From NCBI GenBank assembly GCA_937867025.1, contig CALMKH010000023.1, forward strand, positions 1 through 56,385: a DNA stretch of 56,385 nucleotides. Direction: 5' to 3'. This document shows positions 27,218 to 51,642 of the stretch, one piece after another. The notes beneath the pieces were generated by a model, which was not told the DNA's origin, did no database searches, and saw only the letters and a list, made by a program, of their open reading frames with translations. Each line of letters begins with the position of its first letter. Within the stretch, counting starts at the first letter, position 1. The translations under genes were made by a program, and so were the position numbers. This DNA is from an uncultured Bacteroidota bacterium. Lineage in GTDB: Bacteria > Bacteroidota > Bacteroidia > NS11-12g > UBA955.

Positions 27218-27250
27218 AAAAAAAAATGCCGTCCGGAGACGGCATTTTTT
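27218..27250. terminator. Bidirectional intrinsic terminator between purQ and the giant operon
   Basis: aaaaaatgccgtc / cgga / gacggcatttttt. The minus-strand loop is C(UCCG)G, with U-runs on both strands. Confidence 0.9.
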
Positions 27251-27268
27251 CATCAAATATTATATCCT

Positions 27269-30200
27269 TTATTTCACGAATATAAGTCTCCTGTTCTGTA
27301 CACCTCTCGAATTCCTGATCTTGATGATGTACGTTCCGTCGGCAAATGAATCATACAGGTCGAAGGAATGAATATCTTTTCCTACTACATTAAAGTTCAT
27401 GAACATTTTGCCGGTCATGTCAAATACTTCTATGGTGATTGGTTCGTCCAGGCCAAGTGCAGATAAGTTGGTGATCACCACATTTCCTGCGCTAGGATTA
27501 GGCTGCACTGCAATTGAAGCAGGTTCCGGAGCGTCGATGACAAGCACTGTGTCGATCTTCGAACATCCTTTGGCGTCGGTGACAGTCACTATGAACATTC
27601 CGGTTCCCAGGTTGACAGCGGTATCTGTGGCCTGGCTCCTTGAATCATCCCACTTGATGGTGTACGGCGCTGTTCCGCCTTGTATTTCCACCCAAGCATA
27701 GCCATTGGTTGCTGACTTGGTGGCGGATGTGCCATAAGCCTGCAGCAACAGTTCGGGTGGTTCGGGAACAACAGCAGTATCCCTGAATACGCAACTGTTG
27801 ACGTCTGTCACGGTCACATGATAGGAACCCTGTACGAGTCCGCTGATGTTCTGCGAGGAGGCCCCGTTGCTCCAGTTAAACGTGTAACCAGGAGTTCCGC
27901 CGGATGGCAGCAGGCTTATTGCGCCTGTGTTATCGCCGTAACAATCCACGTCGTCCACTGTCATTGCAGCGGTAAGCGGTGCGGCTGGCTCTGTAAGGGT
28001 AATGCTGTCCTTCAGGATACAGTTGTTGGAGTCTGTGACGGTGAGTACGTATTTGCCCTGCGGCACATTGGTGAGATCTTTGGTCAGCGCGCCGTTCGAC
28101 CAGTTGAATACATATGGTAAGGTACCGCCGCTGATATTGGCTGTCACCGAACCGTCATTTCCGCCGAAACAGTTGATATTATCATTAACGAGGGCGGACG
28201 CCAGCGGAGCTGAAGGCTGACGGACTGTAACAGTGTCTTTCAGTATGCAATTGTTGGCATCTGTCACGGTCACCATATAATCGCCTTTTATCAATGTATT
28301 GATATCTTCTGTTGAAGCCGCATTCGACCACGCAAAGGTGTACGGAGATGTTCCTCCTGATACAGTCAGGTCAGCGCTTCCGTCATTGCCTCCGAAACAT
28401 TTTACATCCAGTATAGTGACAGTGTTGCTCAGCGGAGCAAGTGGCTGGGTCAGGACAGAAGTATCCAGCAGGAAGCAGTTGTTCTTGTCTGTTATGCGGA
28501 TGGAGTAGGTGCCTTCCTTGACATTGTTCAGGTCTTCGGTTGTGGCGCTGTTGTTCCAGGCGAAACTGTACGGTATGGTACCGCCTGTAACGGTCAGGTC
28601 AATCTGTCCGTCGGAACCGTCGTAACAGTTGATATGATCCAGTGCCTTGCTGAGGGCAAGCGGTGCGGTAGGTTCTTTAATGGTGAGTGTATCCCTGCGC
28701 ACGCAGCTGTTGCCGTCGGTGATAACGACGCTGTAGACGCCCTTAATCTTTCCTGAGATGGCTGATGTGTTCTCGCCGCTCGACCACTGATACGTATAAG
28801 GCAGTGTGCCGCCGGTACCCAGGGCAGTGATGCTTCCGTCATTGCCTCCGAAGCACAGCACGTCATTTACCGTAATGTTTGATAGCAGCAGGGTTGGTTC
28901 GTTAATGACAACGGTATCCCTGTCGGTACATGCATTGGCATCTGTTACGCGCACAATATAGGTGCCTTTCACAAGGTTGGTGATATCCTGTGTGGTGGCG
29001 CTGTTGCTCCACTGATAGGTGTAAGGTGTGACGCCGCCTGTGACGCTCAGGTCAATACTTCCTGTATTGCCTGCAAAACATTTCACATCCTGGAATGTGT
29101 GTGTGGCTACGAGCAGGGCAGGTTCTGTAATGTTGACCGTGTCGTTGGCCACGCAACCGTTATTGTCGGCTACTACGACCGTGTATTTTCCGGCAACAAG
29201 TCCATTGAGGTCCTGGGTGCCGCCGCCATTGCTCCACATGTAGATATATGGAGTGGTGCCTCCTGTTACTGTCAGGTCGATGCTTCCATCATTACCGTTC
29301 TTGCATTTCACATTCTGGAATGTATGGGTAGCGATAAGCAGCGCAGGTTCTGTGATCACAACCGTATCCCTGCGTATGCAGCCGTTGGCATCAGTGATCC
29401 TCACTGTATAAGTGCCTGCAACAAGTGAGCTTATGTCCTGCGTAACGGCGCTGTTGTTCCAAAGATATGCGTAAGGGCTTACTCCTCCGGTAACAGTCAG
29501 GTCGATGCTGCCGGTATTGCCATTTTTACACCTGACATTCTGGAAGGTCTTGCTTGAAACCAGGAGTGCCGGTTCGGTGATGATCACTGTGTCGCGGACA
29601 ATACAACTGTTGCCGTCTGTCACCCTTACAGTGTATGTGCCGGCTGTGAGCGAACTCAGATCCTGGGTGGTGGCCGATGTATTCCAGAGATAGGTATACG
29701 GCGTGGTTCCACCACTGACGCTCAGGTCAATGCTTCCGTTATTGCCATTCTTGCACAGGACATGCTGGAATGTTTTAGTGGAGACAAGAAGGGTAGGTTC
29801 GGTGATGATCACCGTGTCGCGGGCTATGCAGCCGTTGAAATCGGTCACCCTCACAGTGTATGTGCCGGCAGTAAGGGAAGCCAGATCCTGGGTGGTGGCA
29901 CTGTTACTCCACAGGTAGTTGTATGGTGTTGTTCCGCCGCTTACGGACAGATCGATGCTTCCTGTGTTGCCGTTTTTACACCTGACATTCTGGAACGATT
30001 TGCTTGTGACCAGTAATGCAGGTTCGGTAATAATAATGGTATCTTTCTTCGTGCAGGCATTGGCATCGGTTATCGTTACAATGTAGGTGCCTGCTGTCAG
30101 TCCGCTGATATCCTGCGTGGTAGCGCTGTTGCTCCACAGGTAGGTATACGGTGTTGTTCCGCCGGTTACAGTCATATCAATGCTGCCTGTGTTGCCGTTT

Positions 30201-33200
30201 TTGCACCCTACATTCTGTACGGTCCTGGTTGTAGCAAGTTTGGCAGGCTGTGTGATGACTGTGGTATCGCGCAGAACGCAACTGTTCGCGTCGGTAATCC
30301 TTACAATGTAAGTGCCGGCTGTGAGAGACGACAAATCCTGGGTGGTAGTGCTGTTGCTCCACAGGTAGCTGTAAGGCGATACCCCGCCGCTGACGGTCAG
30401 GTCGATGCTGGCATTGTTTCCGCCGTTACAGGTGACATGCACAGGTGTCTTGCCGGCAACCAGCAAGGTTGGCTCTGTGATCGTTGCGGTGTCGCGCGCT
30501 ATGCAGCCGTTGGCGTCTGTGACCAGAACCGTGTAGGTGCCTGCGGCAATATTGCTGAGGTCCTGGGTTGTGGCGCTATTGCTCCAGAGATATGTATAAG
30601 GAGTGGTACCTCCGCTCACACTCAGGTCGATGCTGCCTGTGCTGTTTCCTTTACAAGCCACATTGCTGGGGGACTTGGAAGTGATCAGCAATGCTGGTTC
30701 GGTGATAACAACTGTATCGCGTCTTACGCATGCGTTTGCATCTGTTATCACAACCGTATAGGTTCCTGCGGAGAGTCCGGAAAGGTCTTCTGTAGTTGCG
30801 CTGTTGCTCCAGAGGTAACTGTATGGAGTAGTGCCCCCGGTGACTGTCAGGTTGATCGACGCGTCGCTGCCACCTTTACATTTTACGTTCTGTGTGGTTT
30901 TGGTGCTTACGAGCAGGGCAGGTTCGGTCACAATGCTGGTATCCCTGAGGATGCAACCGTTGAAGTCAGTGATCCTCACACTATAAGTGCCTGCAACAAG
31001 TGAAGAAATATCTTCAGTGGTTGCACTGTTGCTCCAGAGGTATGAGTAAGGGCTTACGCCTCCGTTCACTGTCAGGTTAATGCTTCCGTTGCTTTCATTC
31101 TTGCATTTGACATTGGCAATGGTCTTGCCGGCGGCAAGCAATGCAGGTTCAGTGATGACAACCGTATCGCGTGCGATGCAACCGTTGTTATCGGTTATTC
31201 TCACAGTATATGTGCCGGCAGTCAGCGCGCTGATATCCTGGGTGGTAGCGCTGTTGCTCCATAAGTAGCTGTATGGCGATGTGCCTCCGCTGACACTGAG
31301 GTCGATGCTGGCATTGTTGCCGTTTTTGCACAACACGTTGACACTGCTTTTGCTGCTGACAAGCAGGGCAGGTTCGGTGATCACTGTTGTGTCTCTTAAT
31401 GCACATCCGTTGGCATCCGTGATCAGCACGCTGTAGGTGCCTGCGGACAGGGACGACAGATCCTGGGTGGAGGCGCTGTTGCTCCATACATATGTATACG
31501 CTGTAGTTCCGCCGCTTACCGTCAGATCAATGCTTCCGTCGTTTCCGCTCTTGCATTTCACATGCAGGAGATTTTTTGTAACGGTTAGCAGGGCAGGTTC
31601 AGTAATGATCACTGTATCTCTGCGGATACAGTTGTTTGCATCTGTTATCACAACGGTATAGGTTCCTGCGGCAAGACTACTTACATCCTGGGTTGTTGCG
31701 CTATTGCTCCATACGTATGTGTATGGGGGCACGCCTCCGCTGACGGTCAGGTCGATACTGCCGTCGCTGCCATTTTTACATTTCACGTTGACACTTGTCT
31801 TGCTGCTGGTAAGCAGGGCAGGTTCAGTAATAAGGGTTGTGTCCCGGGCGATACAGCTTCTGTTATCGGTAACAGTGAGCATGTAAGTTCCGGCGGTAAG
31901 GGTCGAAATGTCCTCGGTAGAGGCGCTGTTGCTCCATAGGTATGAATATGGAGCGGTACCTCCGCTGACACCGATATTGATACTGCCATCATTTCCGTTC
32001 TTGCATTTCACATGATCGAAAGTTTTGCTGATAACAATCTTGCCGGGTTCTGTAATGACAGATGTATCTCTCACAAAACAACCTCTTTTGTCTGTTATCA
32101 ATATATGATAAGTGCCTGCGGACAATCCGGAAAGGCTTTGTGTAGTATCTGATGTATTCCAAAGGAAGGTGTAAGGACTCTTGCCCCCGGATGTTGAAAG
32201 GGTAATTGAACCATTGGTGTTACCGAAACAGGCGATATTCGATACGGTTTTTGAAGCGATGGTAGGTCGTATAGCCTTTGTCACAGTGACCTCATCAGAT
32301 GCTGTACAGTTGAAACTGTTGGTTACCGTTACACTATAAGCACCTTCCGTATTCACCCCTATGGTTTGTGACGTGCTGTTGTTGTTCCACAGGTAGGAGG
32401 CATATCCCGAGCCGGCATCAAGTACCAGGTTAATGCTGGAACCTTCGCAATAGAAGGTATCATTGCCGAGATTAACTGCCGGGATGGGTCTTACAATGAA
32501 TAACCTGGTGCTGTCGAGCACGCTGCCGGTGGTTGGTGAAACAGCCCTGATGCGGACATTGGCAGATCCTGAAGTAATGTTAGGTACCTTCCACCTGAAA
32601 ATCGTATCTGCTCCGCTTAAACCGGTCTGAAGGGTTACATACGCCTGATTGCCAACGGAGTATTGAAGGTTAAAGGTTGTTATAGGCACTTTTTTCCAGG
32701 TGAGGTCGAGGGTATCGTTCACGCAGATGCTGAGTCCGCTGTCCAGCGCATTCAGGAAGTTCTTTGGTGAAATGGTGATCACAAGATCAGGATTGGTCTT
32801 TGCCGCTTCCTTGTTCTCAACATTGTCTGATGCAACCGTATAGAATTTGTAAAGACTTCCGCTGTTGCCCCTGAATATAACGAAGGTATCGGTGATGTTC
32901 TTTGCATAGGAGATATATGGGCCGTTATTTTCTGATACCAGGAGTTCCACTCCTCCGACGCCGCTTCCCCCATTGTCATCCTGAGCTTCAAAGGTGATAG
33001 GGAATTGCAGGGAGTCGATAATCGGCGGCATTGAATCGATACTGCTCACGGGAGCTTTTGCATCGATGATATTATGTATCCTCGGGGTAAAGATGGAAGG
33101 GTTGTTGTCAAATACAATCTCTGCTTTCGCCCTCAGGCTGTCACCTGTTACAGTATTTGTTTTTGCCTTGATGGTGAAATCGACGAAACCTTCTCCGTTG

Positions 33201-35776
33201 TGTTTGGAAGTATCATTGACCGGAAGGAAGCCCCGTGTTCCTGATGTCGGTGGTAAACCTGTTGCAGGATCAATGGACTCAAATATCCAGAACGCCTTTT
33301 TGGATGATACGTCTATACCGGCCGTTACATCTACGTAAATGCCGAGTGAATCCCTCAGATCCAGTCGTTGCTGGTAAGTTGACACGTTGTTTGGCACGCT
33401 GAAAGTCCAGTTGTTGAAACCGAAGCTGGAAACCCTGAAGGTATTCATGTCCATATTGTTGTCGATCGGCAGGTCAACTGATACCCTGCTGGCTGGAGCA
33501 GTTGCGAATTTGGGATCGTTTTCAAAGCGTACCTTATAGGTTTGAGTTGCAAATTTTGAAACGAATTTCTTGTCCCCATAGCTGGGTGGCCCGATGATAT
33601 CGTTCGGGTCATAGGAGCAGAGTATCGGGATGAAGAAGACAAAAGCGCTTTTTTGTCCTTTGCATCCGTTCTTGTCGGTTATGGTAGCTGTTTTGGTACC
33701 CGATGATCCTATGGAACCTTGTGAAGCTACCAGCAACCGCCCGTTCGGCCAGCTGTAAGTATACGGTGGCGTGCCGCCTGAGCCGCTCACGTCAAGATAG
33801 ATTTCCGGACGGCGATCGCAAGGTCTTACATAGATACCTCCTCCGCTTATGCTACCGTCTACTTTCTCCGGTGCCTTTACCTCAGTTTCATCAACCACTT
33901 CGCATTTTGCGACAGTGTCTTTCACCCAGGCTACATATTTTCCGGTATCAAGACCTGTCAGGTCTTTGCTGGTGGATAAAACTGCATTGGTTGTATCTCC
34001 TTTATACCATTTGTATTCAAACGGTCCGTTCGATTTCTTGACAGTCAGCTTGATCTCACCGTCTTTGGAATCAATACATTTGGCATCTTTCACATCAAAT
34101 TCCAGTTCGATGGAATCAGGGCAGCACTTATCGCCTACATTCACAGCGAACCAGGCGTTGCAAACCTGTTTGTATTCTTCCGAAGTTTTGCCGTACAGGT
34201 CTTCGGCTGCCAGCAGGGTAGCTTTTCTGGCACCCTTGTAGTCCGAGGTGGCGATCAGGTAGCGTCTGAGGGCCTTGAAAGCGATCTTTTCAGCCTTGGC
34301 CCTGCCAATACCTGTTACATCATAATTGTCGTTGGCATCATTTGTTCCACTTCCGCCAATGGTGAGCAGGTAATACCAGTAAGCGGCCACCTGCGAGTTG
34401 AAATGGACGCCTCCGAAATCGTAAGCAGCTGTAGTGCTGCGCCAGTTTCCTCCTTTATAGGTATCTGGCAATGACCAGGGGCATGAACAATTCTTGGGGT
34501 CGGACATCAGTCGTTCCTGTGAAAAGCCATTTCCTGATTTTTGCAGGTCTTCGAACAGTGCCCAGTTACCGCTGTTTCCTTTTGCGTAAAACTCGATATT
34601 GGCGCCGAAAATATCAGCCCAGCCTTCATTTAATGCACCGCTTTCGCCCTGGTAAATAAGGCCTGCTGTTCTTGAGATGATGGCATGTGTAAATTCGTGT
34701 CCGCATATATCCAGGGAAACCCAGGCATTGGTCTTGTTGTCCCCGTCGCCGAACTTCATGGCCTTGTCCCCATTGGCCCAGAAGGCATTGGCGACATTAT
34801 TGCCGTAATGCACCCAGTTGGTGATGGTGGAACCTGCATTGTCGTAGGAGTTCCATGAGTGCGTGTTCTTGTAGTAGTCATACACCTTTACAATGCCATA
34901 GTGAACGTCCACAGCAGCCTTTTGCCTTACGCTATCCCACACGTTGTTCGGATCGTTGAAATTGACAGGTGCGCTGGTTCTTCCATTGCAGTCAAGTGTT
35001 TTGATCTTATTGATGGAATCGTAAAGAACATACCGGTTGGGAAGGGTTGTAGTATTGATATTGACATTCCCTGAATACAGGCTCGCCCCTGTTCCGTTAG
35101 CCGGGTGAAGGTTGTTGATCATATTAACCACTTGTCCTTTTTCAACATCTACGAATACCTCATATTCTGCAGGCTCGGTTGTAATAACCGTAATAATGCA
35201 GGTCAGTACCCATTTTCCTGTGAAGATATTTCCGGCAGGCGCATAGCAAAAACGGAACGTCGGTTTCAGCTCATCGGGAGATTTACCCTGATTCCTGTAG
35301 AAATTGATCTCAAAGGAGTCAAGCCACCTGTAAGGTTTGTCGCCCAGGTGTTGCAGGGCCAGGTCAATGTAAGGCTGGGGATCGTTTACCGGAATCGGCT
35401 TGAAATCCACATCTCTCGGTGTCCCTATAATAGCCGTTATGACGTTGTCCTTGCTGCGCTTCACAATCAGGTCGCTGCCGTACAAGATCCTTCCATTGAA
35501 ATACTGGTCGTATTTGGCGAAAGTAAATCCGTCTTCGGAAAAAGTTTCCCTTATATTATATACAGGAACAGCATCCAGATGATATACGCTTTTCATGATT
35601 TCGAATAAGCGGATATCATTCACTTTGTTCCATTCCCTGGATGGTTTAACAAAGAATATGTCACCATTTGAATTGTATTCCACATCTTCATAACGATATT
35701 CCTGTCCGAACATGAACTGGCATGAAAGCATCATGAAGGTCGCTAAAATATATCTTGTTATAGTCATTGTTTTCAT
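27269..35776 (-). CDS. 2835-aa T9SS-secreted protein: M4 (thermolysin-family) metallopeptidase with propeptide, DPND-motif domain, SprB repeats, type A CTD
   Basis: Signal peptide ending MFG|Q. NAFW, HEFTH (34685-34699), GALNEGWAD, GGVHFNS. SYDPNDIIGP (DPND at 33599-33610). 21 tandem SprB-type repeats. VQPNPS...G.YIIKI...RRLIFVK CTD. Confidence 0.92.
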   Translation of the reverse strand: MKTMTITRYILATFMMLSCQFMFGQEYRYEDVEYNSNGDIFFVKPSREWNKVNDIRLFEIMKSVYHLDAVPVYNIRETFSEDGFTFAKYDQYFNGRILYGSDLIVKRSKDNVITAIIGTPRDVDFKPIPVNDPQPYIDLALQHLGDKPYRWLDSFEINFYRNQGKSPDELKPTFRFCYAPAGNIFTGKWVLTCIITVITTEPAEYEVFVDVEKGQVVNMINNLHPANGTGASLYSGNVNINTTTLPNRYVLYDSINKIKTLDCNGRTSAPVNFNDPNNVWDSVRQKAAVDVHYGIVKVYDYYKNTHSWNSYDNAGSTITNWVHYGNNVANAFWANGDKAMKFGDGDNKTNAWVSLDICGHEFTHAIISRTAGLIYQGESGALNEGWADIFGANIEFYAKGNSGNWALFEDLQKSGNGFSQERLMSDPKNCSCPWSLPDTYKGGNWRSTTAAYDFGGVHFNSQVAAYWYYLLTIGGSGTNDANDNYDVTGIGRAKAEKIAFKALRRYLIATSDYKGARKATLLAAEDLYGKTSEEYKQVCNAWFAVNVGDKCCPDSIELEFDVKDAKCIDSKDGEIKLTVKKSNGPFEYKWYKGDTTNAVLSTSKDLTGLDTGKYVAWVKDTVAKCEVVDETEVKAPEKVDGSISGGGIYVRPCDRRPEIYLDVSGSGGTPPYTYSWPNGRLLVASQGSIGSSGTKTATITDKNGCKGQKSAFVFFIPILCSYDPNDIIGPPSYGDKKFVSKFATQTYKVRFENDPKFATAPASRVSVDLPIDNNMDMNTFRVSSFGFNNWTFSVPNNVSTYQQRLDLRDSLGIYVDVTAGIDVSSKKAFWIFESIDPATGLPPTSGTRGFLPVNDTSKHNGEGFVDFTIKAKTNTVTGDSLRAKAEIVFDNNPSIFTPRIHNIIDAKAPVSSIDSMPPIIDSLQFPITFEAQDDNGGSGVGGVELLVSENNGPYISYAKNITDTFVIFRGNSGSLYKFYTVASDNVENKEAAKTNPDLVITISPKNFLNALDSGLSICVNDTLDLTWKKVPITTFNLQYSVGNQAYVTLQTGLSGADTIFRWKVPNITSGSANVRIRAVSPTTGSVLDSTRLFIVRPIPAVNLGNDTFYCEGSSINLVLDAGSGYASYLWNNNSTSQTIGVNTEGAYSVTVTNSFNCTASDEVTVTKAIRPTIASKTVSNIACFGNTNGSITLSTSGGKSPYTFLWNTSDTTQSLSGLSAGTYHILITDKRGCFVRDTSVITEPGKIVISKTFDHVKCKNGNDGSINIGVSGGTAPYSYLWSNSASTEDISTLTAGTYMLTVTDNRSCIARDTTLITEPALLTSSKTSVNVKCKNGSDGSIDLTVSGGVPPYTYVWSNSATTQDVSSLAAGTYTVVITDANNCIRRDTVIITEPALLTVTKNLLHVKCKSGNDGSIDLTVSGGTTAYTYVWSNSASTQDLSSLSAGTYSVLITDANGCALRDTTVITEPALLVSSKSSVNVLCKNGNNASIDLSVSGGTSPYSYLWSNSATTQDISALTAGTYTVRITDNNGCIARDTVVITEPALLAAGKTIANVKCKNESNGSINLTVNGGVSPYSYLWSNSATTEDISSLVAGTYSVRITDFNGCILRDTSIVTEPALLVSTKTTQNVKCKGGSDASINLTVTGGTTPYSYLWSNSATTEDLSGLSAGTYTVVITDANACVRRDTVVITEPALLITSKSPSNVACKGNSTGSIDLSVSGGTTPYTYLWSNSATTQDLSNIAAGTYTVLVTDANGCIARDTATITEPTLLVAGKTPVHVTCNGGNNASIDLTVSGGVSPYSYLWSNSTTTQDLSSLTAGTYIVRITDANSCVLRDTTVITQPAKLATTRTVQNVGCKNGNTGSIDMTVTGGTTPYTYLWSNSATTQDISGLTAGTYIVTITDANACTKKDTIIITEPALLVTSKSFQNVRCKNGNTGSIDLSVSGGTTPYNYLWSNSATTQDLASLTAGTYTVRVTDFNGCIARDTVIITEPTLLVSTKTFQHVLCKNGNNGSIDLSVSGGTTPYTYLWNTSATTQDLSSLTAGTYTVRVTDGNSCIVRDTVIITEPALLVSSKTFQNVRCKNGNTGSIDLTVTGGVSPYAYLWNNSAVTQDISSLVAGTYTVRITDANGCIRRDTVVITEPALLIATHTFQNVKCKNGNDGSIDLTVTGGTTPYIYMWSNGGGTQDLNGLVAGKYTVVVADNNGCVANDTVNITEPALLVATHTFQDVKCFAGNTGSIDLSVTGGVTPYTYQWSNSATTQDITNLVKGTYIVRVTDANACTDRDTVVINEPTLLLSNITVNDVLCFGGNDGSITALGTGGTLPYTYQWSSGENTSAISGKIKGVYSVVITDGNSCVRRDTLTIKEPTAPLALSKALDHINCYDGSDGQIDLTVTGGTIPYSFAWNNSATTEDLNNVKEGTYSIRITDKNNCFLLDTSVLTQPLAPLSNTVTILDVKCFGGNDGSADLTVSGGTSPYTFAWSNAASTEDINTLIKGDYMVTVTDANNCILKDTVTVRQPSAPLASALVNDNINCFGGNDGSVTANISGGTLPYVFNWSNGALTKDLTNVPQGKYVLTVTDSNNCILKDSITLTEPAAPLTAAMTVDDVDCYGDNTGAISLLPSGGTPGYTFNWSNGASSQNISGLVQGSYHVTVTDVNSCVFRDTAVVPEPPELLLQAYGTSATKSATNGYAWVEIQGGTAPYTIKWDDSRSQATDTAVNLGTGMFIVTVTDAKGCSKIDTVLVIDAPEPASIAVQPNPSAGNVVITNLSALGLDEPITIEVFDMTGKMFMNFNVVGKDIHSFDLYDSFADGTYIIKIRNSRGVQNRRLIFVK
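27540..32255 (-). repeat. 21 tandem SprB-type Ig-like repeats (about 75 aa / 225 nt)
   Basis: Units NVxCxxGxxGSIDLxVxGGxxPYxYxWSNxATTxDxxxLxAGxYxVxITDxNxCxxxDT counted by eye. The last unit is divergent. Boundaries are approximate. Confidence 0.9.
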
Positions 35777-35783
35777 AATCGTC

Positions 35784-41700: not shown

Positions 41701-44700
41701 GGAGATGTTGGCCATGCTCTCAGGGTGTAATTAACGCCGCCGGTGAACGAGAAAGAGCCGATGCTGACAGTATCCGAGCCGCCGGATTTGATAGCCCCGC
41801 TCCAGCTGTAATTAGTTTGTGAAACACCATTCATGGTCCATTTTATCGTTGCGTTCTTGAGTGTATCTGAACCGAAGTTGTTCAGGATGACACGAACAGT
41901 GCGGGATCCGCTTGCAAACGGAGCATTGGGCCCTCCATAAGCCGATATACCGGCATCATTCGGGGATGGAATTTCAAATTCATCGGCTCCGATATCAGGG
42001 GTCAGGCTATCGCGTTTGTTGCCATCAAAATCTTTTTTCACGTCGGAAAGTGACTTTCCGGCTTTGTTCAGGTCAACAGCCCTAACGTGCAGATCAGTGC
42101 CCGACACAAAGAACGGATCGACTGAGATAGAATTGCCGTCTTTTGAGTTGGCCGATTTCAGCGCCGCGAGATCGCTGCGGTCGCCACCCCAGTACGCCAG
42201 GTATGAACCATTCGTGCGGTAACAGTTGTGGTTGGATTCGACAATTGTACCGGTAGAACTGGTGTAAAGCGCATAGCCGCTGCCGGTATGATCGAAGATG
42301 TTGTTGACGGATCGTATGTTATTGCTTGATGAATGCTGTATGGCATATGAAGAGGTGTACGTTGAAGCGACGCGGACGTTGTTGTTGTAAAAATTGATGT
42401 ACGAGCCGCTGTAATTATATATTCCATAAGCGTCATACTGTCCCAGAAGGCTTATCATGTTGTTTGAAACAATCGAAGGCCTGGAAGAATAGCTGTTGCA
42501 TGAATAGAGGTACAATCCCATATATCCTGATGGAAGTATGATGTTGTTGCCTGAAATGTTCATGGTTCCCCGTGCAACCTCCAGGCGCACGCCAAAGCCG
42601 TACTGGTACGTGCCCATAGTGATTTTGTTCGATGTAACGGCCGGAGTGTCTGTATAGTTCAGGAAAATGGCATTGTAATAAGGCGTTTCAAACGTATTGT
42701 TATGTACCTTTATATTCTTGTCGTATACTCCGTTGTTATAACCATAGGCGTAGATTCCGTAGGCACCGTTTTTAAACACGTTGGATGTGAAATGGTTGTT
42801 GTCATTGTTCCTGCTGTTAGTAATGGTAGAATAAACAATGGCGTGGTTGGCTCCGGATCCTGTGGATGAAACGCCCTCAAGGATATTGTTTTCCAATGAG
42901 GTCAATGTTGCCCCGTTCTCGAGATAGAATACAGTGGCGTAGGTTGAATTGACAGCACTGACGGTCATCTTGCGGAATGTGATGCCCCTGGCGCCGTTCA
43001 GTCTCACTGTATAATTATTGGAAGATCCTGCGGAGTTGGTCAGAGTAACAAGCGTGCTGTCGAGGTTTTCAGACTGGAACACGATGTCATTTCTCTCAGC
43101 CGCACCGGTTATGGCAGGAATATCCAGCTGTTCGTTGTAAGTACCGTTCCTTACATTAAACAATACGCTTCCTATGATGCCTCCGCGTTTCATGGCATCA
43201 ACCGCATCGGTAAAGGTATTGAAGTCAGGACTTGCCCCGCCGATGGTGTATGTTCCGCTCAAGGCAGGATACTGATTGACTGCTGATGCCGTGTCATTGT
43301 AATTCACGGTGTCATTGTAACTGTTGGGTAGCGAAGTCCAGGCTTTAAGGCTGTAAGCGCTGTCCGGATCAAAATTTTTTGTTCCCAGTATAACATGGAC
43401 TGTATCATTGGAGGCCAGTGAGCCGCTCCAGCTATAGCTGGTTTGCGCAGTCCCGTTGAACACCCAGCCGATGTTGACACTGCTGATGGAATTCATTCCG
43501 AAGTTTTTCAGCACCACTTTTACGAATTGTGTATCGGGCAGGAAAGGGGTCTTAGGGGTTATGATATCGGAAATACCTGCATCCAGCGCGGGAGGGTCAA
43601 ATTCATCCGCACCTATGTCAGGTGTTGAATCGCGCAGGTCACCTTCAAAGTCGGTGGTAAGACCTGTGTACCGGTCCGCTTTCGCATTGAGCCCGATTTC
43701 CCGGATGTGCAGATTGGTTGTTCCGGTAAACAACGGGTTGATCGAAAGTGAATTGGCATCTGTTCCGGATGCTGACCTGAATGAAGCAAGGTCCGTATAA
43801 TATATATTGTTCCTTCTTGCCAGGTTGGAACCTGATGACCTGAAGTTGTTCTTATCCGATTTCTGAATGGCTGAAGAGTTATAAATATTGATCGCCACGC
43901 CGGCTCCTGTATTTTCTATAATATTATTCAGCACATTCTGCGAACTTCCCGATTCAAGGTACATGCCTATTGAACTGGAATTTGTGGAAGTGCCAAGGCG
44001 TATGGTGTTGTTGATAAAATGGCCCCTGTTGACATTGTACATATAGAAACCGTAAACGTCACCGGATCCGCCCAGGTTCACCATGTTGTTTGCGACAAGT
44101 ATGGTATCGCCATTCCCATAACCTGAATAGATATAAATTCCGTATCTTCCGTAATCAGGACGTTTGATATTGTTCCTGGTGATCCGCACTTTATTATAGA
44201 GTTGCTCGCCCCTTATGGCCATAAAGTCGGAATATGTGGAGGTCGAGGAAATGGTGTTGAAGTCGACTACCGGTCCGTCCTGATAGATCAGCGCTACCGG
44301 ATTATAGAACTGGTTCAGGAATGTATTGTTTGTGATCCTCGTGCCGGACTCCCTGTAATTGGGCGGGCCGTAGCCATACCAGTACACGCCGTAACTTCCG
44401 CCCTCAAACACGTTCCTGTCAAATTCATTATATTGTTCGGTCGTGTTGCTGTTGAAAGAGCCTACCAGCGCCATGCTTGAGCTGGTAGTATTGCTTGTGC
44501 TGTTTTTAATGCGGTTGTTGTTCAGCTTATTGTAGCTGGCGTTTTCTTCAAACCGGAACACCACGCCGTTGCTTGAATTGAGCGACATGATGGTGAGGTT
44601 CCTGAATGTTATATTGGAGGCTCCTTCAAAGAACACCACATAATTCGTGTCGGAGAACGTGGAGTTGTATTGAAGGGTGACGCTTGTACTGTCGAGGTTG

Positions 44701-47700
44701 GAGCTTTCGAATATAACGCTTCCGGGCTGGTTGGCGCCATCGATCGGTGTCAGTACCAGTTGTTCCGTATATGTTCCCGACCTGACCCTGAACCGCACCC
44801 CGCCAGAGATGCCAGCTTCTTTCATCGCTTGGATGGCGGCCTTGAAAGTTGTGAAATCAGGCGTTGTGCCACCAATGGTATACACACCGCTCATGGCGGT
44901 TTTTTTATTCTTTATCCTGAAGGTGTCGTTGGATTTTTTCTGATCGGTAAGGTTGTTCGGCTGTGACGTCCAGGCAGTGAGATTGTTGACGCTGTCTCTT
45001 TTGAAGATGTAATTGCCGATGATCACCTGGGCGGTATCGCCTGAACCAAGGGTGTCATTCAGGGTGACGATCGCAAAGGTATCACTGTTGATCTTGCAAT
45101 GCACGCGTACAGATGTCAGGGTGTCAAGTCCGCGGTTTGTAACAATTACCTTGATCTGGACAGTGTCCGGTATAATGGCTCCGGCAGGGCTTATAAACCC
45201 GGTAACACCGGCATCCCTGGTAACAGGCACAAATTCGTCAGCGCCTATATCCGGCGTAGCGGAACGTGTTTCGCCGTCAATATCCCTGGTGACGAAATGA
45301 AGTTTTTTAGCTCTTGCGTTGAGGTTCACCTGCTCTACGTGCAGATCACTGTTGGATATAAAGCCCGGATCTACGGACCGTGAGTTGCTGTCAATGCCGT
45401 CAGCCAGCATGGAAGCCAGGTCGGAATATGAATTCGAGTTGATCTCTGTGAGGGTTGATCCGGTGCTGTAATAGTTGTTGTGGTCGTGAACAGTCTGGTA
45501 AGGTGACTGGATTCTCGCAGCCAGACCGCCTTTTGAGTTCACAAAAATATTGTTAAGTATTTTTGAATAATAAGGGTATACCAGCCTGGCGCCTATAGCC
45601 CCCGAACGCGTTCCATGCTGATGAACATTGTTGTTGGTGATATAGGCATTTTCTGTACTGTATATATAAAGGGCGTATTCTGCATTATCTCCGCCCACAT
45701 TTATAAAGTTATTGAAAATATAGCTGGAGTCAGTTGAATTGTTAGCCTCCAGATACTGAATATAAACCCCTGCATATTCTGATTTATCAGGGCCGGATAT
45801 GCGGTTCCCCGATATCCTGTTAGTGCCATACAGCTGGTAGATATAGAGACCATAGTGCCCGCTATATGCAGAGTTTGACCTTATGATGTTGTCCCTGAAT
45901 GTAAAGTTGGTTGACCTGTCTACATATAAGCCTGCATAATAGGCATCTTCCAACAGGTTGCCTGTTAACGACAGGTTGGTGTTTCCATAGGTATACATGG
46001 CCACGGATCCGTTCTTGAAACGGTTTCCGGCAAAGCTTATATTCAGGCCAGACTGGTCATTATATACCAGGCAATTGTAATAGTCATTGGTATTGGTCGT
46101 CGAGGCCGACTCCAGGACACAATGGAAGAAATCGACGTTCGATGTCCCGTTGTCAAGGGTCACAGCGCGTGTGGCCGTGCTGCTGCTTGTGCTCTTGATG
46201 GTCATATGCCTGAACGTCACCCACTGGGCAGCATCAAGATAGACAACCTCATAAGCCGAATAGCTGGTTCCAAAGCTCAGGGTGACCAGCGAGCTGTCTT
46301 TGTTCTGCGATTCAAATACGATGGCATTTTTTCTTGTGGCGCCCTGTATGGCCGGAATGGCGATGCGTTCGTTATACGTGCCATTCCTTACCTTGAACAG
46401 TACGGAATCGATAATGCCGCCGTCTGTCATGGCGGAAACGGCTGCTGTAAAGGTGCTGAAGTCAGGTGTTGTTCCACCAATAGTATACACACCGCTCAGG
46501 GCAGGTTTGCCTGATCGAGTGGCGGTGTCATTGAAATTCATGGTATCGGTAACGCTGTTCGGACTGCTGGTCCACACCTTGACATTATAGTTTGTATTGG
46601 TGAGGAACCTGTGCATGCCGATGCACAGCTCGGCAGTATCCCCTGAAAGCAGGTTGCCCGACCAGTTATAGGTAGTTTTGGCAGTGCCATTGATACTCCA
46701 TCTCACCTGTACCGAATTCAGGGTGTCCTCGCCGTGGTTCTTGAGTATGACGCGCACGCAGACACTGTCGGCCTTATACGGGAATATGCCTGCAATACCT
46801 GCATCCGCCGGCACAAGACTAAATTCGTCTGCTCCGATATCCGGATTGGTGCTGCTCCTGTTCTCGCCATCAATATCTTTAGTGATCCGGGCATCAGGTG
46901 TCGCGTTGCGGTTCATGTCCGATGAATAGGCATGCAGGTTGAGAGTGGTTTTGTAATTAGGATTTCCGAATGTGGAGGCGGAATCAAGGCTTGTAGAACT
47001 CTTCCAGCCGGCAAGTCCGCTAATGGTCGTGTTATAGTAAAAGGTGGGTGCGGTTGGTGAATAGAAGTTGTTGCGATCGGATGCTTCAATATTTTTAGTG
47101 CCGGAATACGATACGTACATAATGTTGCCCGTGCCATTTTGGGATACCGAATTGTTGCGTACCCTGATATTGCTGCCGTTGTAAATGTACAGGTTGCTGT
47201 AACCGCTGTAAAACGTGTTGCTGTACGTGCTGTTGTTATAAAAGTCTATATAATAGGAATAATACGAGTTCCATGCATAGGCATCTACATACGCAGCCTT
47301 TCCGGCGACAAGGAAGTTATTGGCTATGAGATTCCTGAAACTGCCGGTCCTGTTGACATTGTCCGTATAAATGGCTCCGCTGGCTCCATTGGGTTGCAGT
47401 ATCCTGTTGCCCATAACGGTAATGTTCCTGTTGTTATAGAAATAAATACCGTATCCGCTTGTATAAGCAGTATTTTCCCTTGACAAAAGATTGCCGCTGA
47501 TCTGTACCTTGCTAAAATAATAACAGAAAATATTCGAATAATACTGGTCGATAAAATTGCTTCCGGTGATGCTGAGGTCAGACACGGTGTTGGATGTGGT
47601 CCAGTAGAATCCCGTACTTCCTGATTTAAATTCACATTTGTCTATCTGTATTTTCCTGCTCGTGTTTCCTGTCAGCGAATTGGCCATGAACAGGGCATGG

Positions 47701-48923
47701 TTGGTTGATGTGGTGGAAACGGTAGAGCCTGATATGCGGCAGTTCATGAATGAAAGGTTCAGGAAAGTGCCGCCGATATCCACAACCCGTCCGTATGTTG
47801 AGCCAAGGGCTTCAAGTGTCAGCTGTGCAAACTTGACATGTGCCGCATTTTTGAGTTGAACCGTATAGTTAGTGCCCGATGCAAAGGACGCGTAATATAT
47901 GGTAACGTCCGAGCTGTCACCTGTGGAAGACCTGAAAGTCACGGTTTTAACCGAATCCGTTCCCGGGATAGGGCCAATGATCAATTGTTCGTTGTATGAG
48001 CCGGGCCGGATATTGATCACTACAGGTCCGCAAACACCATTCGCCTGCAGGTCATTGATGGCTGCCTGCACCGATCCGTAATCCGGATTGCTGCCCCCGA
48101 CCGTGAGCGTGTCTCCAAGGCTGGGTTTGATATATGCTATCAGGGTATCGTTCCTGGTCGCGGTGTCTGTCGCACCGTTCGGCAGGGAGGTCCAGACTTT
48201 AAGTGTATCGCGCCTTCCTGCGACAAGCGTTTTGGAGCCTAGTGTTATCCTGGCTTTGTTTGAACCCGAGCCACCTATTGTATCCAGAACGGAATTATGC
48301 CTGTATGTGGTTTGAGTAACCCCGTTGTATGTCCAGTTCACCTTGACAGAGTCGATGCGGTTCCTGCCGGTGTTGCCAATGGTGACGACAATGTTGCGGG
48401 CACCCGGACACACCCTGTAGGGCGAATCAATGGAATACATGGCAGCATCGTTGGTGGCAGTGCTTGAATATGTGCGTATGACAACAATCCTGTCAGCGCA
48501 GAGCTGTATGCCTGAGAATGTCAGGAAATTGGTGTCATTGTACTGGTAAGATCCCAGCAGGTTAAAATCTGCGGAAATCGTATCCACGGTACAGCTGTTG
48601 CATTGACACGAATATGCAGGACTGATCACACCAAGGGTGTCCCCGTTCATCATGGCATAAAAATTACCCGACCCGCAGGAGGTATGGTAAATCTTTACGA
48701 CGATTTTTGTCAGCCGTCCCGGCGAACCGTTGCCGATAAGCAAATGCTGCTTTGAGGTAAAGCAATCGTAATTGCTGCCACAAATGAGACAGCCGCTGCT
48801 GCCGTTTGTGTTGTAGTCATACACGGTGGTGTCGCGCAACTGGGCATTAGCCGGGGTTGAGGCGCAGAAAAGTAAAAAGACGAGAAATAGGGGGGTAATG
48901 AAGCTTTGTAGTTTTAGTCTCAT
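35784..48923 (-). CDS. 4379-aa exported giant protein: Cys-rich N-terminus, five beta-helix modules, eight CARDB repeats, PPC-like and IPT-like domains; no T9SS CTD
   Basis: Signal peptide ending ANA|Q. Five (Y/L)T(I/V)GG..PD(F/Y)...PDIGADEF modules. Eight PDL.V...W.D..YLS.D...E..E.NN units. Ends ...GFTIILPNN with no PNP or PNGDG motif. Confidence 0.9.
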   Translation of the reverse strand: MRLKLQSFITPLFLVFLLFCASTPANAQLRDTTVYDYNTNGSSGCLICGSNYDCFTSKQHLLIGNGSPGRLTKIVVKIYHTSCGSGNFYAMMNGDTLGVISPAYSCQCNSCTVDTISADFNLLGSYQYNDTNFLTFSGIQLCADRIVVIRTYSSTATNDAAMYSIDSPYRVCPGARNIVVTIGNTGRNRIDSVKVNWTYNGVTQTTYRHNSVLDTIGGSGSNKARITLGSKTLVAGRRDTLKVWTSLPNGATDTATRNDTLIAYIKPSLGDTLTVGGSNPDYGSVQAAINDLQANGVCGPVVINIRPGSYNEQLIIGPIPGTDSVKTVTFRSSTGDSSDVTIYYASFASGTNYTVQLKNAAHVKFAQLTLEALGSTYGRVVDIGGTFLNLSFMNCRISGSTVSTTSTNHALFMANSLTGNTSRKIQIDKCEFKSGSTGFYWTTSNTVSDLSITGSNFIDQYYSNIFCYYFSKVQISGNLLSRENTAYTSGYGIYFYNNRNITVMGNRILQPNGASGAIYTDNVNRTGSFRNLIANNFLVAGKAAYVDAYAWNSYYSYYIDFYNNSTYSNTFYSGYSNLYIYNGSNIRVRNNSVSQNGTGNIMYVSYSGTKNIEASDRNNFYSPTAPTFYYNTTISGLAGWKSSTSLDSASTFGNPNYKTTLNLHAYSSDMNRNATPDARITKDIDGENRSSTNPDIGADEFSLVPADAGIAGIFPYKADSVCVRVILKNHGEDTLNSVQVRWSINGTAKTTYNWSGNLLSGDTAELCIGMHRFLTNTNYNVKVWTSSPNSVTDTMNFNDTATRSGKPALSGVYTIGGTTPDFSTFTAAVSAMTDGGIIDSVLFKVRNGTYNERIAIPAIQGATRKNAIVFESQNKDSSLVTLSFGTSYSAYEVVYLDAAQWVTFRHMTIKSTSSSTATRAVTLDNGTSNVDFFHCVLESASTTNTNDYYNCLVYNDQSGLNISFAGNRFKNGSVAMYTYGNTNLSLTGNLLEDAYYAGLYVDRSTNFTFRDNIIRSNSAYSGHYGLYIYQLYGTNRISGNRISGPDKSEYAGVYIQYLEANNSTDSSYIFNNFINVGGDNAEYALYIYSTENAYITNNNVHQHGTRSGAIGARLVYPYYSKILNNIFVNSKGGLAARIQSPYQTVHDHNNYYSTGSTLTEINSNSYSDLASMLADGIDSNSRSVDPGFISNSDLHVEQVNLNARAKKLHFVTRDIDGETRSATPDIGADEFVPVTRDAGVTGFISPAGAIIPDTVQIKVIVTNRGLDTLTSVRVHCKINSDTFAIVTLNDTLGSGDTAQVIIGNYIFKRDSVNNLTAWTSQPNNLTDQKKSNDTFRIKNKKTAMSGVYTIGGTTPDFTTFKAAIQAMKEAGISGGVRFRVRSGTYTEQLVLTPIDGANQPGSVIFESSNLDSTSVTLQYNSTFSDTNYVVFFEGASNITFRNLTIMSLNSSNGVVFRFEENASYNKLNNNRIKNSTSNTTSSSMALVGSFNSNTTEQYNEFDRNVFEGGSYGVYWYGYGPPNYRESGTRITNNTFLNQFYNPVALIYQDGPVVDFNTISSTSTYSDFMAIRGEQLYNKVRITRNNIKRPDYGRYGIYIYSGYGNGDTILVANNMVNLGGSGDVYGFYMYNVNRGHFINNTIRLGTSTNSSSIGMYLESGSSQNVLNNIIENTGAGVAINIYNSSAIQKSDKNNFRSSGSNLARRNNIYYTDLASFRSASGTDANSLSINPLFTGTTNLHIREIGLNAKADRYTGLTTDFEGDLRDSTPDIGADEFDPPALDAGISDIITPKTPFLPDTQFVKVVLKNFGMNSISSVNIGWVFNGTAQTSYSWSGSLASNDTVHVILGTKNFDPDSAYSLKAWTSLPNSYNDTVNYNDTASAVNQYPALSGTYTIGGASPDFNTFTDAVDAMKRGGIIGSVLFNVRNGTYNEQLDIPAITGAAERNDIVFQSENLDSTLVTLTNSAGSSNNYTVRLNGARGITFRKMTVSAVNSTYATVFYLENGATLTSLENNILEGVSSTGSGANHAIVYSTITNSRNNDNNHFTSNVFKNGAYGIYAYGYNNGVYDKNIKVHNNTFETPYYNAIFLNYTDTPAVTSNKITMGTYQYGFGVRLEVARGTMNISGNNIILPSGYMGLYLYSCNSYSSRPSIVSNNMISLLGQYDAYGIYNYSGSYINFYNNNVRVASTYTSSYAIQHSSSNNIRSVNNIFDHTGSGYALYTSSTGTIVESNHNCYRTNGSYLAYWGGDRSDLAALKSANSKDGNSISVDPFFVSGTDLHVRAVDLNKAGKSLSDVKKDFDGNKRDSLTPDIGADEFEIPSPNDAGISAYGGPNAPFASGSRTVRVILNNFGSDTLKNATIKWTMNGVSQTNYSWSGAIKSGGSDTVSIGSFSFTGGVNYTLRAWPTSPNGVTDTLNYNDTLTKSNIYSGLDGIYTIGGSLPDFNTFNDARNALMLGGVLDTVIFKVRNGTYNEQVQILQYPGSSVSRPVTFTSESGDSSKVTLQYSAPNYNNNYIFSLKGADNITISKMTMSATNSYYSTVVSIDNGAANNRILNNRILMSLSYYNGVGVLSGSDRDDNTKILNNVISGGYYGIQVYGGGSSSTLQETGMVIENNTINSFRYSGIYMQYMNAPAIRRNIITPLTNTGDQLIYMNDVSNDVVISYNKLSSSYPYTTGIYINNHQGTSSKKGMIFNNFISLADPYYHGINLISSNYTSIFFNSINLYGTASSSTSACIRFQSANNTDLRNNILSNKAGTYAIHANNVPTLSNYNDLYTSGTNIGFVGSNNYTTLSAWKSGVSRDANSVSVNPNFITDTDLHTTLISLDSAATPISGITDDIDKNTRNATRPDIGADEFNSLPNNLSILAVTNPVNGCEIDSQLLNVTVFNYGSNTQKNFPVRYRVNNGSVISQTFTDSILPGFSKTFTFTGKVNTKPVGDYNFIVWTDASAEQYRLNDTLKVKVTNYQVPDSVGIMIPSDSSKNLDFPFSLSWSPVNGATLYDIYIWPDSVNTRPPTAAYSGLTQISKQITTGLGYGQTYKWQIIARNPSCSTPGPVQRFTVRHLPDVLATTVNSPLTAFSGNSISVSWVTKNRGAGSTGSGYWYDLVYLSKDNILDGSDILLTGVINLTSLSASQSYTQSANVTLPNGISGIHHIIVRTDGYGYILESDEGNNNKSDSLGINVSLTPPPDLQVTSIIKPSQAFSGQTINVRYTVKNSGTGNTRGSSWYDHVYLHSDSVVGGTHVRSLQHTGALDPDSSYTVQTTVPLPNNISGGYYIIVRTDPYNAIYEHANENNNDRISDSLKVILTPPPDLIVRNIVIEDSVSNKEVVNLTYDLINQGGSATTNSWYDQAYVSKTTPFNANNSIYIGGWWRYNIGSDDTITCSQSVTIPDNITGSYFVYVFADAGNLQFEGVNDTNNISRKTTRVLNPDLIIYNVNVPASDTSGKLIQVNWKVRNDGLGKQIFSGRNDKIYISRHNKFHPDSVILLETVHYNAALNPGDSLLRTKFARIPDGTKGSRYVYVVADADNNIYENGKDTNNTRRSSVMTVHLAPYPDLRVLTVNRPDTSEAGKKASITYTVQNKGNRSAIPVWKDRVYMSKDSIYNPSKVTLLKTNNIASTLLVDSTYSITQDVDIPTALSAGNYYFYVFTDASDVRYEYLFENNNIKRSSKIFIKGYPPVDLTVTSITAPDSVFSGNNLSITWKVKNVGLAKTIANTWVDRTYLSSDSILDGSDRFVGETSIFTPLDKDSTYTRNLVYTTPNGISGTYYLLVKTDARNDNNDDDTSNNTRVARNGSGIAKTIKVILSLSSDLQITAWNVPSTATAGQPAQFIWKVENKGDTTTRAGSWTDRVYLSTDYTIDNSDINLGNGTRAGNLLKKASYTDTVSLFIPDITGAYIVLIKTDDGNREYEHNAENNNVQASVMTISQAPPGDLVVSSVTAPSSAIAGGYVNVSYQIRNRGSNPINGTRTDNIYISEDTIFDGTDVLFASRQDQSSLVPNATRNLSAGGYINGIKTGTHYFIVFTDVRDNINESRDTNNTGYGNAIDINVPVLPLNVLTNDTLHDDKNLYYRLIVPDSLKGESILITIKGDSVNGHNELYARLNEVPTRSNFDHAFSTPFYGNQEILIPAADTGIYYIMAYGNTSTANFQKVTLLARKLNFEIRKVTPVSVGNNGQVTLKIEGAKFTENTVFRIAIDSAFAGNPSTVDSSGVLYIEMNALDPSAQGGDAGLIVADPTVAYATFKLVQVPTGLYNVIAEKEEQTAMLRRGLKVVTTEPASVVIDVQRPSNSRTNVLNAFQINYRNTGNVDLVNSFLEIISNGGAPISLTQPGLTQKAINLKVILENDSGPAGVLRAGSEGSVMIYSISSTALGFTIILPNN
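36775..39740 (-). repeat. Eight CARDB-like repeats
   Basis: Units start LPDVL, PPDLQV, PPDLIV, NPDLII, YPDLRV, PVDLTV, SSDLQI, PGDLVV. Boundaries are approximate. Confidence 0.85.
40356..48115 (-). repeat. Five tandem modules of about 530-545 aa (parallel beta-helix + PDIGADEF + Ig/CARDB-like spacer)
   Basis: PDIGADEF is encoded at 46821-46844, 45231-45254, 43599-43622, 41976-41999 and 40356-40379 (spacing 1590-1632 nt). Confidence 0.88.
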
Positions 48924-49007: not shown

Positions 49008-49038
49008 CAAAAGTAGAGCATAATTTCGCAAAACCAAA
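49008..49038 (-). promoter_or_regulatory. Bacteroidota primary-sigma promoter for the giant operon (TTTG-N19-TACTTTTG)
   Basis: -7 element at 49008-49015 and -33 TTTG at 49035-49038, spaced 19 nt apart, about 85 nt upstream of the ATG. Confidence 0.75.
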
Positions 49039-51634: not shown

Positions 51635-51642
51635 CAGACGGA

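Follow-up and report, generated by a model that had tools for sequence, protein, structure and literature searches.

A T9SS-tagged protein and its untagged giant neighbour as a candidate two-gene form of a modular surface-fibre family in an uncultured Bacteroidota bacterium

Introduction

How does a giant secreted protein that carries no recognisable sorting signal cross the outer membrane of a Bacteroidota bacterium? The question is raised by a 56,385-nt stretch of DNA (contig CALMKH010000023.1 of assembly GCA_937867025.1, here called the window), in which two adjacent reverse-strand genes encode very large proteins with apparent signal peptides. Gene 1 (35784..48923 (-)) is an open reading frame (ORF) of 4379 aa for a giant without a type IX secretion system (T9SS) sorting domain, and gene 2 (27269..35776 (-)), an ORF of 2835 aa, holds the only T9SS C-terminal sorting domain (CTD) of the pair. 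According to the portion of PMC11285876 on which we draw, all known T9SS cargo is thought to need a C-terminal sorting domain of its own.

We read the pair as the two-gene ("fission") form of a modular T9SS surface-fibre family. Taken as a whole, we consider this reading evenly balanced, but its parts differ in strength. The two genes very probably represent the conserved fission of one functional unit. That the two chains bind each other has about equal chances for and against, and that gene 1 crosses the outer membrane on the CTD of gene 2 would be the less probable outcome, although a serious one.

Results

Gene 1 ends at a conserved point and is followed by a DPND-module gene

The closing 340 residues of gene 1 (the end module, residues 4040-4379, 35787..36806 (-), ending in ...GVLRAGSEGSVMIYSISSTALGFTIILPNN) were used in a phmmer search of 1.84 billion cluster representatives, which returned 2226 proteins at E<=0.001, 191 of them at E<=1e-30. 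Among the 150 best of these 2226 homologues, 146 end no more than 20 residues past the match (97 of them within 5 residues), three end at 21-60 residues and one at 236. None of the same 150 contains the DPND module, the point at which gene 2 resumes behind its own signal peptide and payload. Many of the 150 are giants of 4360-4450 or ~5470 residues, and the giants share a C-terminus of the form ...E..GP.G.LRPG..G...Y......LGF.I.LP, which is conserved to the last residues. A first-pass annotation of this DNA had correctly placed the end of gene 1 directly after a YxNTGNxD...GVLxxG domain and the continuation of the architecture in gene 2. The split is no peculiarity of this locus, however: given the end point shared by 146 of the 150 best homologues, it is old and conserved, the normal state of a large family and not an error.

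At the junction itself, the TAA of gene 1 and the ATG of gene 2 are separated by the 7-nt spacer GACGATT (35777..35783 (-)), so that the sequence reads TAA-GACGATT-ATG, in agreement with the distance annotated earlier. Contigs X2, X3, and X4, which come from three other samples of three other studies, bridge positions 35776-35809 without an indel, and the sole difference near the junction is one substitution at 35826. The stop codon of gene 1 and the restart of gene 2 are therefore real, and the one continuous ORF that reads across 35700-35900 might have revealed is absent.

A search for related loci with a 4-row alignment yielded eight loci, and one with the single protein yielded none. We counted a split locus as informative if the end module ends the gene; L040 was dropped as it runs off its contig. 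In all 15 informative split loci (14 genomes), a downstream gene on the same strand encodes a protein with its own signal peptide and a DPND module. This gene lies next to the giant in nine loci (the window, L039, L041, L042, L043, L045, L027, L028, and L097), behind one intervening gene in four (L044, L094, L099, and L096) and behind two in L095, while in L026 the giant is followed by an RHS gene, a 238-aa ORF, a gap and then the DPND gene. L041 and L098 belong to one genome. A type A CTD closes the downstream DPND protein at 13 of these 15 loci. Altogether, at least 14 genomes, representing several families, have the split arrangement.

The same modules occur in one chain at other loci

In at least 26 loci, two of them in the bacterium's own genome and at least 24 in others, the end module and the DPND module are found in one ORF and in the same order. 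The first-pass annotation had given, for single-chain proteins, the order CARDB - PPC - IPT - YxNTGNxD...GVLxxG domain - slot - DPND - Ig stalk - CTD, and the two paralogues and the at least 24 loci elsewhere bear this out. The first paralogue (G000:C150:187-6558 (-)) consists of a ~1400-aa repeat region, IPT, a beta-sandwich, a linker of ~150 aa, SIDPNDK-DUF7619, fn3 and a type A CTD. In the second (G000:C171:2781-7931 (+)), some nine PPC-like repeats lead into PKD and IPT, which are followed by a beta-sandwich, a helical slot of ~300 aa and SMDPNE-DUF7619 before the ORF leaves its contig. Several fused copies in family f25 carry RHS, or RHS together with an M10/RTX protease, in the slot; in the GC-rich genomes with fused forms, the slot is helical and comprises ~250 residues. 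Eight further fused loci come from the same class (L100-L107), and a Por_Secre_tail end was found in all five of those scanned.

The closest relatives of the pair are these fused members of the same unnamed family. One-chain members such as C150, C171, L100-L107, and L029-L038 agree with the pair in their domains and domain order: the IPT domain and beta-sandwich (in most cases with PPC and CARDB in front) are followed by the DPND module, and an Ig-type stalk leads to a type A CTD. They differ in being a single polypeptide, in their slot, which spans 150-1000 residues and is a helical linker, an RHS shell or an M10/RTX protease, and in the last half of the end-module beta-sandwich, which is unlike that of the split forms. 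Compared with a profile of the split-type end module, the fused forms match only the first part of the last domain, to position ~250-260 of 314, which shows that the split forms have a distinct end.

In a phylum sample of 401 genomes, all 16 genomes with the end module were among the 30 with the DPND module, a co-occurrence that is descriptive only, since related genomes are not independent. The DPND modules of 14 split, 26 fused, and 4 undetermined forms (44 in all; fragments and duplicate loci were omitted) were also placed in a maximum-likelihood tree, with a midpoint root only. All split forms fall into one well-supported group of 22, together with eight fused forms, and the deeper branches are all fused. 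The split label needs two changes on this tree, and the well-supported branches allow one. Read most simply, the tree would point to one or two fissions long ago, after which the slot content was exchanged.

Only gene 2 carries a recognisable T9SS sorting signal

Gene 2 ends in a type A CTD (27281..27502 (-), residues 2759-2832), recognised by TIGR04183 with 150.1 bits (cut-off 23) and by PF18962 with 117.2 bits. Gene 1, by contrast, matched no NCBIfam family at E<=0.1, including the type A, B, and C T9SS sorting models, and no Pfam CTD. Scans with TIGR04183 and TIGR04131 thus uphold the earlier statement that the pair combines a protein lacking a type A or B CTD with a CTD-bearing partner. 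When the end-module alignment was compared by hhalign with 10 partner type A CTDs, the probability of a relationship was 1.4%.

The genome has a T9SS, as indicated by SprA (TIGR04189, 2445.7 bits, contig C191), and two PorP-family genes, both located on contigs other than that of the pair. The type A model has 148 matches in the genome, and on the contig of the pair (C23) it recognises only the end of gene 2 and an unrelated 786-aa ORF. The type B model TIGR04131 has 39 matches, none of which lies on C23. For a metagenome-assembled genome (MAG) of 3.7 Mb, these 148 type A and 39 type B matches amount to a very large predicted T9SS secretome.

A profile built from the last 105 residues of gene 1 was found only at nine known giant ends, in 8 of 401 genomes of the class, and this domain is therefore not a general cargo tag. 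As far as profile matches can tell, its rarity argues against a general export signal, although a private signal would still be compatible with it. Searched against shorter proteins with a word-indexed and insensitive method, the same 105 residues gave four matches, all of them fragments or CARDB proteins.

Domain architecture of the two proteins

Both proteins appear to begin with a Sec signal peptide followed by Gln, as the first-pass annotation had noted. Read by eye from the translations, the N-termini are Sec/SPI-like, with residues 1-27 of gene 1 (48843..48923 (-)) ending in ...PANA before Gln (ANA-Q at 27/28) and residues 1-24 of gene 2 (35705..35776 (-)) ending in ...FMFG before Gln (MFG-Q at 24/25). 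The Gln in this position fits the Bacteroidetes "Q-rule" as it is given in the relevant part of PMC5837995.

Pfam recognises CARDB, Beta_helix, and NosD in gene 1. The signal peptide is followed by five units of an Ig-like domain and a right-handed beta-helix (40284..48842 (-), approximate boundaries, based on the Beta_helix and NosD matches). Each unit closes in ...DIGADEF, with GADEF at residues 697, 1227, 1771, 2312, and 2852. Next comes a CARDB array (36807..40283 (-), approximate boundaries), in which PF07705 scores 238 bits over 8 stretches, above the gathering score and with the best stretch at 3188-3295.

The 340-residue end module is not recognised by NCBIfam and has no Pfam match better than E 0.12. 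Its AlphaFold2 model (predicted local distance difference test (pLDDT) 89.1, predicted TM-score (pTM) 0.84) consists of three beta-sandwich domains. In a VIA structure search, the first (36453-36752 (-)) resembles PPC/collagen-binding domains, with a Z-score of 11.3 and a root-mean-square deviation (rmsd) of 2.4 over 97 residues for the collagen-binding domain of ColG, and the second (36108-36443 (-)) resembles IPT/TIG domains with Z 11-12. These fold matches agree with the PPC and IPT domains proposed from the sequence. The third domain, the last beta-sandwich of the model (35787-36089 (-), model residues 240-340), was barely covered by the search. A Foldseek comparison of the model with the PDB gave generic multi-Ig matches only (TM<=0.28), and the ESM Atlas returned only unnamed CARDB/PPC clusters.

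In gene 2, the signal peptide is followed by the payload (34136..35539 (-)), which combines an FTP propeptide motif (PF07504, residues 80-119) with an M4 thermolysin-type protease (residues 228-547). The M4 protease that had been proposed here is confirmed by Pfam (PF01447 with 128.8 bits and PF02868 with 132.6 bits, both above the cut-offs) and by the motifs HEFTH at residue 360 and ...GALNEGWAD, which contains the downstream Glu zinc ligand; the enzyme is apparently active. It misses the NCBIfam M4 equivalog cut-offs (160.6 vs 1350) and is therefore a member of the M4 family, not a named orthologue. Two SprB-type repeats (Pfam SprB, 2 stretches) and a Cys-rich linker (33635..34129 (-)) connect the protease to the DPND module. 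Behind this module, the stalk (27527..32776 (-), approximate boundaries) comprises a further Ig-like region, ~20 SprB repeats and a K319L-like PKD domain (PF22352, residues 2673-2747). Over the whole protein, SprB repeats (PF13573) score 833.8 bits in 22 stretches.

The DPND module (32777..33634 (-), residues 715-1000) consists of a DUF7619/CnaA-like domain that starts ...SYDPNDIIGP (PF24595, 53.5-57.7 bits vs a cut-off of 27) and an fn3-like domain. The AlphaFold2 model of these 286 residues has a pLDDT of 93.3 and a pTM of 0.84. Its first domain is of the CnaA type, with SpaD at Z 13.4 (rmsd 2.7 over 133 residues), Sgo0707 at 12.6, FimP at 11.8, and a CLIPPER domain at 9.8, and its second domain gave fn3 matches for model residues 192-286. 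Foldseek was concordant and pointed to AgI/II C-domains and pilins. A cohesin-like reading of the first domain was rejected, as the cohesins, at Z 9.4-9.7, lie below the CnaA-type pilin domains at 11-13.

Residues D9, P10, and N11 of the module are invariant in 25 of 25 aligned modules, and a Gly-Pro four residues past this motif is present in at least 90% of them. The Asp-Pro-Asn stands at the first ordered residues, behind a disordered lead-in, and could serve as a cap, a calcium site, a cleavage site or a cross-link site. No Lys column is invariant or 90% conserved in the 25-sequence alignment, which makes a Lys-Asn/Asp isopeptide bond doubtful for this subgroup.

A variable slot precedes the DPND module

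The position between signal peptide and DPND module, filled in the window by the M4 protease, holds different domains in other split loci. An M4 protease is found by Pfam in the window, L039, and L041 as well as, judged by N-terminal similarity only, in L042, L043, and L097. L044 has a phospholipase A2 (PLA2)-like domain that falls just under the Pfam cut-off, L045 an alpha/beta-hydrolase together with M4, L027 a DUF6531-RHS protein, L028 the same by similarity only, and L096 an M23 domain. In L094, L099, and L095 the slot is almost empty. In these three loci and in G107, the payload is instead a separate CTD-less protein with a signal peptide, encoded between the giant and the DPND gene. The separate payloads comprise RHS proteins that carry DPxGL motifs and have toxin regions at their C-termini and, as the other kind, a protein in which the motif HExxHxxGxxH occurs. 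The range of contents among relatives (M4, PLA2-like, lipase, M23, and RHS) agrees with the earlier proposal of an exchangeable payload, and the slot content is exchangeable on these domain assignments. All scanned partners and fused forms contained DUF7619, with the exception of the G107 RHS protein; in that genome, the DPND module sits in a separate downstream protein that is DUF7619-positive on scan.

Several of these loci have additional parts. L026 (G107:C3:620900-636000) is a four-part version in which the giant closing in the end module comes first. It is followed by a 1442-aa SP-DUF6531-RHS protein (SP, signal peptide) with DPLGL and a toxin-like C-terminal tail and by the 238-aa ORF, which has no signal peptide and may be an immunity gene. 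Beyond a gap lies the gene for a 448-aa protein that has a signal peptide but no CTD and contains little besides the DPND module. L094 and L099 (G446:C17 and C13) are two three-gene versions in one genome, each composed of a giant, an SP-RHS toxin and a protein with the order SP-acidic linker-DPND-Ig-CTD; two fused copies (L100 and L102) accompany them in that genome. In L095 (G500:C12, oriented 1022-3492), the giant is separated from the DPND gene by two small genes whose products have signal peptides. One product, of 510 aa, ends in HEAGHGLFGLRHP, a metzincin-type motif, and has no Pfam match; the other, of 311 aa, has a weak HEAT-repeat match.

Transcription signals and flanking genes

The first-pass annotation had placed one promoter upstream and one terminator downstream of the pair. 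The terminator part is borne out by an intrinsic-terminator-like hairpin (27220..27251 (-)) with a 14-pair stem followed by a T-run, which begins 18 nt past the stop of gene 2. The promoter part is weaker. Two TAnnTTTG motifs, candidate Bacteroidota -7 elements, were found in a motif scan at 49008-49015 and 49035-49042 (-), 85-120 nt upstream of the ATG of gene 1, but over the whole window the motif is no more frequent than chance predicts (40 found vs 41.5 expected), so that a single promoter and a single transcript for gene 1 and gene 2 are plausible only. A sigma-70 promoter scan was likewise at chance level, with a model that is ill-suited to Bacteroidota.

The genes on either side are unrelated to the pair. 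Upstream, at 49469-52659 (-), a LigD-type ATP-dependent ligase fused to a primase-polymerase adjoins a 338-aa protein with KGG stress-repeat motifs. Downstream and on the opposite strand lies a CobB/CobQ-like glutamine amidotransferase gene (GATase_5). Among the neighbouring genes scanned, there is no PorP/SprF-type gene. The 786-aa ORF mentioned above (20881-23241 (+)), 4 kb downstream of the pair on the other strand, is a separate T9SS cargo with Laminin_G_3, Ig_7, and Por_Secre_tail. Elsewhere in the window, at 13749-17728 (-), a fused trehalose-6-phosphate synthase/phosphatase gene stands beside a GH15/trehalase-like gene, which looks like a make-and-break pair, and 7754-9103 (-) encodes a protein that unites a VKOR domain with SPW repeats.

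Discussion

How the two chains might reach the surface

If the pair is one functional unit in two genes, the following course is conceivable. Both proteins would enter the periplasm by Sec. There, the end module of gene 1 would dock on gene 2, the likeliest contact being the DPND module or a neighbouring part, and the CTD of gene 2 would take the assembly through the T9SS and fix it to the surface. The product would be a two-chain fibre with the enzyme at mid-length, in which gene 1 forms the distal and gene 2 the proximal part. The evidence for docking and partner-borne export, both of which the first-pass annotation had proposed, is of one kind, namely gene fusion and fission together with strict neighbourhood. 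Extended to the family, this course leads to a more tentative proposal: the T9SS may export complexes in which a CTD-less giant of ~480 kDa, joined in sister loci by RHS toxins and proteases that likewise lack a CTD, docks via the end module on a CTD-bearing DPND stalk, passes SprA and forms a multi-chain fibre with a swappable cassette. Two complex-prediction runs that paired the end module (340 aa, 36-row alignment) with the DPND module (286 aa, 25-row alignment) each gave a score of 0.00, which counts neither for nor against docking.

Several observations weigh against partner-borne export of this kind. Two of the DPND partners, one of 448 aa in G107 and one of 1679 aa in L045, are without a detectable CTD, and a pure carrier model fails to explain them. 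In six loci, further CTD-less signal-peptide proteins (RHS toxins, a metzincin-like protein, and unknowns) are encoded between the two genes, so that a carrier would have several passengers to serve. Only eight DPND columns are conserved specifically in split forms, and they are scattered and form no patch. The conservation of the end module to its very last residues is also what an autonomous C-terminal signal would look like. Furthermore, the literature yielded no precedent for piggyback export by the T9SS, and a folded assembly of 4379 + 2835 residues would presumably be a demanding substrate.

Alternative explanations

The strongest competitor of partner-borne export, although in our view an unlikely one, is that gene 1 exports itself. 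Its end module, chiefly the last beta-sandwich, would then be an unrecognised private C-terminal T9SS signal or would serve another route, and the two chains would meet on the surface only or never. This would fit a module that is strictly C-terminal in 146 of the 150 best of 2226 homologues and conserved to the last residues, the distinct end of the split forms compared with the fused ones, and the two DPND partners without a CTD. It is harder to reconcile with the lack of any sequence relation to type A CTDs (1.4%) and of any type A, B, or C model match, with the internal position of a related domain in the fused forms, and with the missing PorP/SprF-type gene beside the pair. The distribution of the last-domain profile, which is found only on these giants (9 places, 8 of 401 genomes) compared with 148 type A and 39 type B matches in this genome alone, argues in the same direction. 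We consider it improbable that the pair is an operon of convenience, that is, a giant adhesin and an anchored enzyme-bearing stalk that serve the same process, e.g., substrate binding and degradation, and form no complex. Slot contents that are enzymes or toxins of many kinds (M4, PLA2-like, lipase, M23, and RHS) and the missing split-specific patch on DPND would fit this case. But the repeated fusion in the same order (at least 26 loci) and the linkage in 15 of 15 split loci exceed what shared regulation would require, and gene 1 would be left without a route across the outer membrane.

Slightly more remote still is the idea that the invariant Asp-Pro-Asn of the DPND module is a self-processing or release site, so that fused proteins also become two chains and payload and giant are shed from an anchored stalk. 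Asp-Pro bonds are known self-cleavage sites in other secreted proteins, for instance in the self-processing module of FrpC, and the invariance of D, P, and N in 25 of 25 modules at the first ordered residues would suit such a role, which is compatible with the other readings. The module has no homology to a known self-processing module, however, and a structural cap or a calcium site would be equally good readings of the motif. Moreover, the motif of gene 2 is internal and lies C-terminal to the payload, and cleavage there would consequently not explain how gene 1 is attached. The conserved end point, the many split loci and the bridging contigs exclude that the split is merely an assembly artefact, or that a mutation has only recently made a pseudogene of a single 7,000-residue gene. 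The one observation in favour of such a reading comes from L043 (MAG ABC2.127), in which both genes are fragmented by several frameshifts. This locus has the highest best-segment identity (63%) among the eight named loci of the 4-row alignment search, and its frame breaks reflect either decay or an indel-rich assembly. Against it stand a junction that is the same in three independent assemblies, a separate signal peptide on gene 2, the end point shared by 146 of the 150 best of 2226 homologues, and at least 14 genomes with the arrangement. We therefore retain conserved fission of one surface-fibre protein as the preferred reading of the pair.

Relation to known systems

No description of the architecture of the pair was found in the literature, but it shares elements with several known systems. 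SprB and RemA, the gliding adhesins of Flavobacterium johnsoniae, are reportedly giant repetitive surface proteins that depend on the T9SS, and SprB is said to have a type B CTD and a dedicated PorP-like protein, SprF, encoded beside it, with no protease or DUF7619 module. Gene 2 resembles SprB in its 22 SprB-type repeats. It differs from SprB in its type A CTD and in having no PorP-family neighbour, and we do not regard it as an SprB orthologue.

With polymorphic toxin/RHS systems the family has in common a constant delivery scaffold and an exchangeable enzyme or toxin cassette, and in its relatives also DUF6531-RHS, DPxGL cleavage motifs, C-terminal toxin regions and one possible immunity ORF. 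In the window, by contrast, the cassette is an M4 protease that lies mid-fibre before DPND and not at the C-terminus; there is no RHS match in gene 1 or gene 2 and no immunity gene in the window, and the pair accordingly does not qualify as a polymorphic RHS toxin. According to the pertinent part of PMC7073777, the N-terminal domain that defines the TANFOR polymorphic toxins of Bacteroidetes is a different one.

The first domain of the DPND module shares its fold with the CnaA-type/DEv-IgG domains of Gram-positive pilins and AgI/II adhesins and with CLIPPER (DUF11). In contrast to these, it has the invariant N-terminal DPN motif, always precedes fn3, and has no conserved Lys. DUF7619 is closely related to DUF11/CLIPPER according to the corresponding portion of a survey of isopeptide domains (bioRxiv 10.1101/2025.04.25.650565).

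In its logic, the export proposed for gene 1 is the same as that of the Tat hitch-hiker PaoABC of Escherichia coli, in which signal-less subunits bind a signal-bearing subunit and cross the membrane folded, as shown experimentally in the work excerpted here (PMC4273604). The membrane, the machine and the signal are different, and for the pair we infer such export from the arrangement of the genes.

Significance

The family offers a natural experiment on the rule that each T9SS cargo needs its own CTD, as the same fibre is encoded either in a single tagged chain or in two or three, only one of them tagged. Should the chains without a tag arrive at the surface, the T9SS would either take pre-assembled complexes or read a signal that current models miss, and either outcome, if true, would alter the genome-based prediction of T9SS secretomes. 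In addition, two unnamed, well-folding modules bracket the enzyme or toxin slot, and this bracket could help to find new secreted effectors in Bacteroidota. If the proposed export holds true, the family would give the T9SS its own counterpart to hitch-hiker export as well as to polymorphic toxin scaffolds.

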